Counted from the first letter of the stretch, positions 54,001 to 57,000 are shown. The stretch is DNA of 64,000 bases from Gammaproteobacteria bacterium (GCA_030425295.1 JAUIAT010000001.1:69392-133391); one strand, 5' to 3'. Numbers: made by a program.

Positions 54001-57000
54001 CTTTACTCTTATTGAGCTTGCAATTGCCGTGCTTATTATTGCGATTTTGGCTGCTATAGCAGTTCCTAAATTTGTTTTACTTTCTGATCAAGCCAAGCTT
54101 TCTGCTGTTAAAGACGCAATTGGTACAGCGCAAACTTCACTAGCAGTTTATCGTGCTGAAAACGATGATTTCCCGACGCTTGCTCAATTGGCAAACCAAA
54201 TTGAGCTAAGAACAACAGCTACTCAGGCTTATTACTCAGGTGTAGATGCAGATCAACCAAGTGGTATTTCAATTACAATTGATAAAACTAACTATATTAT
54301 TAGAACATTTACCGACTCTAATTGTTCTCAAACATTCTCTACAGGGGATGCTGCAAGTGCTACAGGCACAATCCGATGTGTTCGAGGTACTTACCCAGCA
54401 ATTAGTGAATTCTAAACGCTAAGATTATCATAGTTAAAAGCCCGGGCAAACCGGGCTTTTTTGTTTTAGTTATATATTTATTGTTACTCTATCTAATGTG
54501 CTAGCCTGTGTAAGGTGAGTAATTCACTAGACCTAGTGATTTAAATGTGAGATTTAGGGGCGCTATTTATATTTATTTAAAATTGATGTGTGCTTGACAA
54601 AAAGGTTAATTGCTCATAAAATATACAAATATTGTAATTTGCAGCTCTCATTATTAGTTTTAAATAAAACTCATTATTGATAAATAAACATGCATAAATA
54701 GTTAACTATAGTGAATAAAAGATTAAAAAAAGCAAACTTAAGTTTGGAAACAAAGCGCGAAGATAGAGGATTTAGTTTATTAGCTAAATTTTTTGTTGTA
54801 GTTCTTAGCTCACTTTCAATATTTTATTTATATATTCTTACAAGACAAAAAAAATCAACTCATGGCATTAATGAATTTATAAGTTTAGATGAAGACCCTT
54901 TGCCTGCTGAGTGTCAAAATTTATATGCAGATGCTTTTGATAAAAAAATAGGTGTTTTGGGGGAGAAAAACTCTGCGATATTATCTGCTGCAAAAAAAGA
55001 AACTTATGCTGTATTATGCGAAGTATACAAAGGTAAGCTTCCACCTTGTAGTGATAATTTAAATATATTATTTGATACAGAATCGGTTGGAAATATACAT
55101 CAAGCAGGGGCAGAAGTGCATACATCATATGATAATGACAATACTCTTGATGCTACCTTAAAGTTGAATTCATATATTATGGCAACAGAAGGTGTAATTG
55201 ATACACTAACCACTGTTAGGCATGAATTAGAACACTTTGGTAATGCATGTGCTCAGCAAAAGAATAAACTGAAAATTAAAGAATTTGAACTAGATAGAAT
55301 AAATAAATTTAAGAATTTAATTAGGTTAAATGCTCCTTACAAGACTGATGACCAGGCAAAAGAGTTCAAAGAATCCTTGGCAAAAGATTTAACAGCTTTG
55401 CAACCTGCTCTAGATGCATATAGTAAAGGACTTAAAAACTTAACCCCAAAGCTAATTACTCAAGCAAAAAGCTTAGCAAATAATAGATTTACCACATTTA
55501 CCTTTGATGATAATACTCGTATAGATGCTATATTTTTATTTGCTCAAGCTTTGCAAAGTAAAAAATTTGAAAAGTGTAAAGTTGTTGACTCTACTCCTTC
55601 TAAAACTGTGGTTCAGTTAAAGGACGTTGACGGATTTGTCAATCACTTAAATACAATACTAAGTGATAGTTTTAAAGATAAAATGGTTATGACAAAGCGT
55701 AATCGACTAACAAGAAAGTCAATTGATGAAATCAAAGAGCTTGGCCTAGAGCAAGAGCTGGTAGATGTGGCATATCATGCAGAGTTAGTTCCAAGGCTTA
55801 TTGAGCTCAATGAGGAAGTATTAAGATTACTTTTTCCTAATGTGCTCAAGTATAGAGAAAAATACTATAACTACTTTGGTATCGAGCCGCCAACTTTGGA
55901 TTATAAACGAGAGTTGGTCTGCTAATAAATAATTAGTTTATTAGGTGTCATCGTGATACCTAGCTTCGGACGAAAAGGAGCGGCAAAGGAGGTGACTTGT
56001 TTATCTTGTCGAGCGAGAGTTATATTTAGGCTTGTATAGCACTCCACATTGGGAGGAACACTCCCAAAGCTACAACTAGCAGCATAGCGCCTAAAACTAC
56101 TAAGGTAATAGGTGTTAGAATATCTTCTAGTCTTTGGATATCAAAGTCTACCTCTCTTTCGTAATGCTCAGCTCCATAAGCAAGCATTTCTTCAAGCATA
56201 CCAGTTTGTTCGCCAACTTGGATCATCTGCATAATAAATGGTGGAAATAATTTGCTATCAGCAGCTGAATTAGTAAAGGTTTTTCCTTCACTAACCTCAG
56301 TAGCAATTTTATTCATGTGGTATGAGATATAGCTATTATCAAGGGCGCTAGCAACCATATTCAGTGTGTCCACTAATGATAATCCAGATCTAAATACAAT
56401 TGTAAAAAGTCTTGATAGCCTAGCCATATAGGCTCTATATACTATTGATCCAATTGGAGGAATGCTCATCAATAGGTAGTCCCAAACATATCTTCCTTTT
56501 TTTGTGCTTATGTACAGCTTTATAGATAGATACATGCAGAAAAGTATACCAGTTATGAGCTTCCATTCTTTTACTATAAAGTCTGATGCACCAAGAATTA
56601 TTCTTGTTGGTAATGGCATGGTTACACCTAGCGATCTATAAAGCATTTGAAACCTTGGGATTACAAATACTGCTAGTACAACTATTGCTATAATAAGCGT
56701 TAACATAACAATAACAGGGTATCTCATTGCGGATTTAAATCTATCAGATGACTGTTGCTCAAAGTCTAAATATTTGCTCAATTCCTTGAAGGTTTCTTCT
56801 AGTTCACCACTCATTTCCCCGGCTTCAACAGTTTTAGTGAATAACCCAGAGAAAATATTAGGATATTGAGAAAGGCACTTGGCAAGAGGCATACCAGCAC
56901 TGACTTTGTCACCAATTTCATTGAGTACTTTCCTCAATTGAGAATTGGTAACCATTTCAGCAGATTTTAGTATTGCTAAGTTAACGGGTATGCCTGCATG

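Follow-up and report, generated by a model that had tools for sequence, protein, structure and literature searches.

The DNA analysed here is a stretch of 64,000 nucleotides from a Gammaproteobacteria bacterium (GCA_030425295.1 JAUIAT010000001.1:69392-133391), which we call the window. It holds a gene of 1.2 kb at 54711..55925, situated between an array of four pilin genes and mshG, a gene of an MSHA-type pilus operon. A preliminary description made from the sequence had placed the gene at this position, with which we agree, and had presented its product as a membrane-anchored HExxH protein, consistent with either a horizontally acquired zinc metalloprotease-like effector or a pilus-associated processing enzyme. 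The gene, its signals and the parts of its product are the following (GC, G+C content).

54436..54470, plus strand: intrinsic terminator after the last pilin gene, with a 10-bp stem containing 6 G-C pairs, a 5-nt loop and a T-run
54594..54622, plus strand: sigma-70-type promoter-like site, TTGACA-17 nt-TAAAAT, 11/12 match
54623..54710, plus strand: 5' leader of the gene, about 88 nt, A/T-rich, unstructured, without a Shine-Dalgarno sequence
54711..55925, plus strand: the gene, GTG start, 404 aa, GC 0.320
54711..54770, plus strand: predicted cytoplasmic tail at the N-terminus, residues 1-20, basic (7 Lys/Arg, 3 Asp/Glu), with Arg19-Gly20 at its end
54771..54839, plus strand: signal-anchor segment, residues 21-43, FSLLAKFFVVVLSSLSIFYLYIL, Kyte-Doolittle value about 2.0 over 19 aa
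55221..55235, plus strand: HELEH motif, His171-Glu172-Leu-Glu174-His175, in the context TVRHELEHFGNA
55281..55295, plus strand: E191-F-E-L-D195 (ExxxD), a candidate third-ligand motif of the gluzincin type, noticed post hoc
55942..55962, no strand: weak 9-bp hairpin in the gap between the gene and mshG, without a U-run and not significant (region z = -1.48)

The gene and its transcription signals

The open reading frame (ORF) is a genuine gene and not a chance frame. Its stop-free frame extends over 407 codons; when the same DNA was shuffled 2,000 times, the longest such frames averaged 76 codons and never exceeded 195. The ORF exists as described, with a GTG start and a product of 404 aa. The GC values at the three codon positions are 0.437, 0.304 and 0.220, and this order (GC1 > GC2 > GC3) is the pattern expected of coding DNA, which supports the reality of the gene.

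Behind the last upstream pilin gene, whose end lies at 54415, stands a terminator that was graded as strong, a textbook case: the sequence AAAAGCCCGGGCAAACCGGGCTTTT forms the stem-loop (54436-54460) and is continued by the T-run TTGTTTTAGT. This terminator separates the gene transcriptionally from the upstream pilin genes. The gene has a promoter-like site of its own in the 295-bp spacer, 89 nt upstream of the start codon, which indicates that it is transcribed independently as a monocistronic unit. The site ranks best within the 5.5-kb neighbourhood (52000-57500) and is the sole match with at most one mismatch on both strands of the 64-kb window, where 0.56 such matches are expected by chance. 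It is therefore informative by its placement, in the spacer and on the correct strand, and not by its rarity. The leader between this site and the start codon has a minimum free energy of -13.5 kcal/mol, which is not below that of shuffled sequences (z = +0.76). At the other end, the gene and mshG are convergent (3'-to-3'), with the mshG stop at 56026 and a gap of 100 bp between the two stops, in which no terminator-like site was found.

Composition, homologs and related loci

The base composition of the gene was compared with that of the 57 genes and 27 intergenic regions of the window. Its GC of 0.320 is the lowest of the 57, the other 56 genes averaging 0.389 ± 0.027 (z = -2.6), and its GC3 of 0.220 is also low (z = -2.0). 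The spacer upstream (GC 0.285) is likewise the lowest of the 27 intergenic regions. The gene and its upstream region had been called strikingly A+T-rich; they do have the lowest GC in the window, but the deviation is modest, since seven other genes lie at 0.324-0.349 and three other intergenic regions at 0.288-0.298. Amino acid composition accounts for part of the deficit: F/Y/M/I/N/K are more frequent in the protein, G/A/R/P less so. By its synonymous codon usage (Karlin B) the gene takes the 55th place of 57, among the most genome-typical in the window. The comparison with the window genes thus gave a divided answer: the codon usage is that of the genome, the GC content is not.

Neither notable flanking direct or inverted repeats nor traces of mobile elements were found around the gene, and insertion by a mobile element was rejected as its origin for lack of such repeats. 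Descent from a decayed pilin paralog fused to new sequence was also rejected, as the gene resembles the four pilin genes beside it neither in DNA nor in protein sequence. No donor or relative turned up in protein, metagenome, viral or plasmid searches. The low GC and the absence of the gene from related pilus loci would suit a horizontal acquisition, but with typical codon usage, no donor and no mobile traces we cannot tell whether it took place; the gene may just as well be native or have resided in the genome for long.

The statement that the protein has no other recognizable family features proved right. Pfam and NCBIfam gave 0 matches even at E <= 10, PADLOC gave nothing, and the only PHROGs match was an insignificant one (phrog_28122, E = 0.031) to a family of unknown function. 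A word-indexed search of 5.8 billion proteins returned only the query, both with the full length at E <= 1e-3 and with the soluble domain at E <= 10, as did an exhaustive phmmer search of 1.84 billion representatives, and scans of metagenome and viral contigs, tblastn against plasmids and phmmer against the PDB found no relative. The lineage itself is poorly sampled: in a set of 15 billion proteins clustered at 90% identity, L20, PheS, MshE and MshG each form a singleton cluster, and the source genome is absent from the GTDB species representatives searched. Sparse sampling does not account for the missing homologs, because a control gene of the same window (15477-16799, AT-rich and Pfam-negative) found 55 homologs, the best with 52% identity (E = 1.9e-101). 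On these comparisons the gene is a strict orphan, taxonomically restricted, and its sequence family is new.

Like other bacterial ORFan genes, including those of Legionellales, it has no outside homolog, a lower GC than its neighbours, a monocistronic arrangement and a position at an operon boundary. It differs from them in its length (404 aa is long for an orphan), in a codon usage that is fully genome-typical and in the absence of any phage or mobile-element trace.

A set of 146 loci around MshG homologs (2.15 Mb) served to examine the same position elsewhere. When the protein was compared with these loci by tblastn, the only match was one of 43 residues covering the anchor (E = 0.06-0.09). 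The absence of a relative from the 146 loci indicates that the gene is an add-on outside the conserved pilus machinery. The nearest loci (L002-L004) are collinear, with mshE-mshG followed by a pilin-like gene of 193-203 aa and further pilin-sized ORFs. The locus in the window is rearranged: the pilin genes face mshG, the orphan gene lies at the junction, and no pilin-like gene follows mshG. The pilin-like genes of the related loci occupy the same space beside mshG, but the orphan gene is convergent with mshG, is about twice as long and has no similarity to them in the 146 loci beyond the anchor match. We also considered it as a divergent MshF or post-MshG gene and rejected this, since the 43-residue match, to locus L033, concerns the anchor only and the orientation is opposite.

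Topology of the product and competing explanations

The protein has one hydrophobic segment, at residues 21-43, which bears out the N-terminal signal anchor of the preliminary description. Lys/Arg residues flanking the segment number 7-8 on the N side and 3 on the C side, and by the positive-inside rule this difference moderately favours an N-in/C-out orientation. The C-terminal domain of about 360 aa would then most probably lie in the periplasm. This part of the protein is near-neutral (pI, isoelectric point, 6.5), rich in Leu/Lys/Glu and poor in Gly/Pro, and contains five of the six Cys residues. The claimed coiled-coil stretches found no support in a crude home-made heptad score, in which the best 28-residue window reached 1.40 against 1.31 ± 0.09 in shuffles and was equalled or surpassed by 20% of them. 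AlphaFold2 gave low confidence (predicted local distance difference test, pLDDT, of 37.0 for the full length and 36.2 for the soluble domain), and the two models disagree on the secondary structure preceding the HELEH motif. A Foldseek search of the PDB with the full-length model, which is unusable at this pLDDT, gave 0 matches at E <= 0.001 and no protease.

The best explanation, which we hold with moderate confidence, is that of an independently transcribed orphan gene encoding a periplasm-facing accessory protein of the inner membrane. The gene sits at the 3'-to-3' junction of the pilin operon and the mshE/mshG operon. Its product would be a bitopic inner-membrane protein, inserted by the Sec/YidC route, with the 20-residue basic tail in the cytoplasm, the anchor at residues 21-43 and a mainly helical domain of about 360 residues facing the periplasm. 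It would act as a lineage-specific envelope accessory protein outside the conserved pilus machinery and would probably not be a translocated effector. The data show the ORF itself, its promoter and the terminator before it, the single anchor, the orphan status, the absence from related loci and the Dot/Icm context, whereas the orientation, the periplasmic location and any function are inferred.

Several points weigh against this explanation. No Shine-Dalgarno sequence is present at the GTG codon (54711) or at a TTG codon at 54744, a feature that 9 of the 57 window genes likewise lack. The only other copy of the gene, on Logan contig L001, shows no difference over 6,073 bp (100% identity), so that no sequence change speaks for purifying selection. 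The predicted orientation is drawn from a single rule, the positive-inside rule, and a moderate charge difference. The closeness to the pilus genes may be accidental, operon boundaries being permissive insertion sites. In addition, RavK of Legionella pneumophila provides a precedent for an enzymatic product: a manual scan with PROSITE patterns picked out its HExxH motif, and mutation then proved the motif to be catalytic (PMC5298343).

Among the alternatives, the one that survives best, although we entertain it only tentatively, is that the product is a class III signal protein, which would be cleaved after Gly20 to give a 384-aa pilin-like accessory or tip protein lacking Glu5. Such a protein is compatible with the N-in/C-out topology of the envelope accessory protein described above. 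The N-terminus reads KREDRG/FSLLAKFF (the slash marking the putative cleavage position; in full, MNKRLKKANLSLETKREDRG followed by FSLLAKFFVVVLSSLSIFYLYIL) and resembles a class III-type leader: its basic part ends in Gly at -1, and behind it come Phe at +1, Ser-Leu-Leu and a hydrophobic helix; Ala and not Glu is found at +5 and Lys at +6. When scored with a position-specific scoring matrix (PSSM) built from 315 pilin N-termini, the six site positions reach about +15 bits. Moreover, among 589 non-pilin ORFs with a hydrophobic segment at the N-terminus, none has a segment that begins with the strict motif GF[ST]L[ILVM] and lacks Glu5, and the gene lies directly downstream of the prepilin-gene array on the same strand.

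The total PSSM score of the N-terminus, in contrast, is -21.4, far below the training minimum of +14. Neither Ala5 nor Lys6, Phe7 or Phe8 was seen in any of the 315 pilins, and Lys at +6 and Phe-Phe at +7/+8 are not known from pilins. A hidden Markov model (HMM) of pilin N-termini gave 0.1 bits (E = 88, rank 475/2,820), and Pfam N_methyl did not match. The HMM and the PSSM together rule out a canonical pilin. The matrix is, however, also blind to genuine pseudopilins without Glu5, 57 GspK-like proteins having a mean of -35.4 and a best score of -11.1, and this subclass was therefore kept as a rival. The score of -21.4 lies above their mean and is reached by only 6.5% of other ORFs bearing a transmembrane segment.

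With the GspK/PilX-like minor pilins lacking Glu5, the protein shares the basic leader, Gly at -1 and a hydrophobic helix without Glu5; the GspK-like proteins of related loci are 405-475 aa long, compared with the 404 aa of the product encoded here beside pilin genes. It departs from them in its separate transcription and in its sequence: a full-length search (hmmsearch --max) with a profile of the 57 GspK-like proteins gave -0.9 bits and Pfam T2SSK was silent, on which ground a GspK-like minor pilin of similar size was rejected. A long alpha-1C helix is not expected, given Gly52, Pro63 and Pro65 a short way behind the anchor. Further points on the same side are that the genome already has a cluster of probable minor-pilin genes with a 541-aa member lacking Glu5 (17078-20072), that the DNA bears no trace of an origin from the pilin genes nearby, and that the gene is transcribed apart from them. 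The pilus-associated alternative of the preliminary description gains a little from the prepilin-like RG/FSLL N-terminus, yet this N-terminus fails the profile tests.

We consider it doubtful that the protein is a zincin in which His171 and His175 would bind zinc, Glu172 would act as the base and Glu191 or another acidic residue would be the third ligand. An enzyme of this kind might be located at the inner membrane or act in the host cell, a placement that we regard with the same doubt. The HELEH motif was found as claimed (residues 171-175), and no second HExxH occurs in the 57 proteins of the window. It arises by chance in 0.75-0.78% of shuffles of the protein, and at about 0.75% per protein a genome of 3,000 genes would, by our own estimate, hold about 20 chance occurrences. 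The candidate third-ligand motif E191xxxD195 lies 16 to 20 residues after His175; its chance probability is 7.5% given HExxH, and the joint probability is 0.00056, values to be read with the fact that Asp + Glu make up 14% of the protein and that the motif was picked post hoc.

Thermolysin-like gluzincins have HExxH followed by ExxxD, with a spacing of about 19-20 residues or more to the Glu, and an N-terminal type II membrane anchor is known in the gluzincin clan, e.g. in neprilysin-type enzymes. The protein resembles the gluzincins (MEROPS clan MA(E)) in having HELEH followed by the candidate motif E191xxxD195, and the spacing is near that of the thermolysin-like enzymes. It differs from them in that the candidate Glu stands at 16 and not at about 19-20 or more, and in that it has no profile or sequence similarity to any family. 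Known zincins carry a small or hydrophobic residue just ahead of the second His, where PROSITE PS00142 does not admit D/E/H/R/K/P; in the protein this residue is Glu174, and a regular expression for a PS00142-like pattern accordingly fails. The metzincin extension HExxHxxGxxH/D is absent (HELEHFGNACA). No peptidase family was found in Pfam or NCBIfam at E <= 10, no solved zincin aligned with the motif region in phmmer searches of the PDB with the whole protein or with residues 113-240, and Foldseek found no protease, though with a model that is unusable. Conservation of the motif provides no evidence, because the protein has no homologs.

RavK, an actin protease exported by Dot/Icm, is comparable in that HExxH was the suggestive feature in a Dot/Icm-bearing bacterium. 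It differs in the following: exhaustive phmmer returned no sequence similarity, the RavK motif was caught by the PROSITE scan whereas ours fails the PS00142-like pattern, and the predicted topology and the C-terminus of our protein are ill-suited to Dot/Icm export. If the envelope protein were catalytic after all, HELEH and E191xxxD195 could make it a membrane-tethered gluzincin-like peptidase with periplasmic or pilus substrates, a minority version of the favoured explanation to which we give little credence.

The effector interpretation takes its start from another group of genes in the window.

4365-8582, plus strand: Dot/Icm genes IcmQ, DotM/IcmP and DotL/IcmO-like, recognized by Pfam matches

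The matches are IcmQ (PF09475, 1.7e-35), DotM_C (1.9e-55) and a 791-aa coupling protein with TraG-D_C, and they identify the host as a Legionellales-type bacterium with type IVB secretion. For the two large ORFs that immediately precede these genes (44-2029 and 2113-3153), no Pfam family was found. That the product is a Dot/Icm effector, which would anchor in a host membrane after its delivery, appears unlikely from its sequence. Such a role is typical of AT-rich orphan genes restricted to single lineages in Legionellales. The presence of Dot/Icm genes in the same window speaks for it, as do the Legionella homologs of the neighbouring orphan-like gene 15477-16799. The gene is lineage-restricted, low in GC and monocistronic, traits that are common among Legionella effectors. 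A Leu at -3 from the C-terminus points in the same direction, and strongly hydrophobic transmembrane effectors do exist, with an inner-membrane intermediate on their way (PMC11602083).

The known transmembrane effectors of Legionella, however, are mostly N-in/C-in and have periplasmic loops under 30 aa, and SidF needs its C-terminal signal on the cytoplasmic side; when SidF was made N-in/C-out or was given a larger periplasmic loop, its translocation was impaired (PMC11602083). For the protein studied here, N-in/C-out is predicted, with about 360 aa outside. Its last 35 aa contain 6 Lys/Arg and 4 Asp/Glu (net basic), 1 Ser/Thr and no E-block ([ED][ED]xx[ED]) according to a heuristic check, which is not a trained predictor. 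A Dot/Icm translocation signal, by comparison, has an acidic E-block, is rich in Ser/Thr and is exposed to the cytoplasm, whereas the predicted orientation would put the C-terminus of this protein in the periplasm. It has no homolog among known effectors.

A spurious or non-functional ORF, or a very young proto-gene, is very unlikely. The lack of any homolog, of a Shine-Dalgarno sequence and of a confident AlphaFold fold would agree with it, and so would the identity of the sole second copy, which leaves no sign of selection. Opposed to it are the 407-codon frame in DNA of 32% GC (shuffle maximum 195), the codon-position gradient together with the genome-like codon usage, the near-consensus promoter, well placed behind a terminator, and the coherent signal-anchor architecture.

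The zincin, prepilin-type, Dot/Icm export and non-functional explanations are not mutually exclusive. Most improbable of all is a combined one, in which the gene would represent a new family of PilD-type-processed pilin-like proteins without Glu5 carrying a divergent gluzincin-like module, a "modular pilin" with protease activity that would be delivered to or displayed by the MSHA-type pilus; if true, it would link pilus biogenesis to proteolysis at the cell surface. As for the metalloprotease or effector interpretation from which the study set out, we cannot tell whether it holds.

The pilus genes and other features of the window

The genes on either side of the orphan gene, and a second group related to them, are as follows.

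52261-52656, plus strand: prepilin gene with N_methyl match, G/FTLIEL
52701-53201, minus strand: prepilin gene with N_methyl match, G/FTLIEL
53441-53860, plus strand: prepilin gene with N_methyl match, G/FTLIEL
53942-54415, plus strand: prepilin gene with N_methyl match, G/FTLIEL
56026..63961, minus strand: MSHA-type pilus biogenesis operon, convergent with the orphan gene, consisting of the seven genes below
56026-57258, minus strand: MshG
57260-58954, minus strand: MshE, with MshEN domain
58958-60376, minus strand: TPR protein
60384-61298, minus strand: AAA_22 ATPase
61310-62980, minus strand: secretin, with Secretin_N_2
62977-63327, minus strand: 116-aa ORF
63320-63961, minus strand: T2SSM-like protein
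17078-20072, minus strand: another cluster of pilin-like genes, lying 32 kb away from the main locus, with 3 small genes and a gene for a 541-aa protein

The four neighbouring pilins score 36-43 bits with the HMM of pilin N-termini and are 37-57% identical to each other in pairs. Between the divergent genes 52701-53201 (minus strand) and 53441-53860 (plus strand) lies a 27-nt inverted repeat (53213-53239 and 53349-53375), the arms of which are 89% complementary, stand 109 nt apart and each contain TTGACA/TGTCAA. A regulator might bind at this repeat, or the repeat might delimit a promoter segment that can be inverted. The best relatives of MshG in genome and metagenome collections are 41-42% identical and come from unrelated gammaproteobacterial metagenome-assembled genomes; the pilus locus as a whole may have been acquired.

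The small genes of the second cluster code for proteins of 159 aa (QKG/FSLIELAII), 138 aa (LG/ASLIEAGV) and 182 aa (NNG/FTLIELAIV). The 541-aa protein (17078-18703, minus strand) lacks Glu5, reads QNG/FLAITAAILLV and has a weak match to a beta-propeller. The cluster probably provides minor pilins or the tip protein of the pilus system.

The gene 15477-16799 (plus strand), which was used above as a control, encodes 440 aa, has a GC of 0.347 and no Pfam match. Two Legionella yabuuchiae proteins are among its homologs, some of which carry PF11789, which we take to be zf-Nse, an SP-RING-like domain, or PF27266. It is plausible that the gene belongs to a eukaryotic-like effector family.

A low-GC block (0.324-0.349) at 39737-45258 adjoins the tRNA-Pro gene 39151-39227. 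It codes for a response-regulator-like protein, a 627-aa GHKL-ATPase protein and three ORFs without Pfam match, and may be a genomic island. A His/Cys-rich protein of 318 aa without Pfam family (MGGHAGCNHHHKEK..., ...HDTCHHDHHDHHDE...) is encoded at 49902-50858 (plus strand), just upstream of an ATP-binding cassette (ABC) ATPase with an AAA_assoc_C domain. It may be a metal-binding or transport accessory protein. The gene for transfer-messenger RNA (tmRNA) at 46549-46926 (plus strand; Rfam 193 bits) specifies the tag peptide ANESNFYAEADFAEAA, which could help in the taxonomic placement of the organism.

It is an ordinary finding that a Legionellales-type genome holds an AT-rich orphan gene; what is new in the present case is a sequence family, and nothing so far points to a new kind of system. 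The case also advises caution, as a lone HExxH, modest AT-richness and proximity to pilus and Dot/Icm genes are insufficient for calling a metalloprotease effector. Should the HExxH prove functional, it would reveal an unseen family of membrane-tethered zincins tied to a pilus locus in a bacterium of the intracellular type. An identical locus is present in a biofloc aquaculture metagenome (SRR24442555). From the ecological point of view, the organism itself, Legionellales-like, Dot/Icm-bearing and provided with a rearranged MSHA-type pilus whose closest relatives are only about 40% identical, may outweigh the orphan gene.

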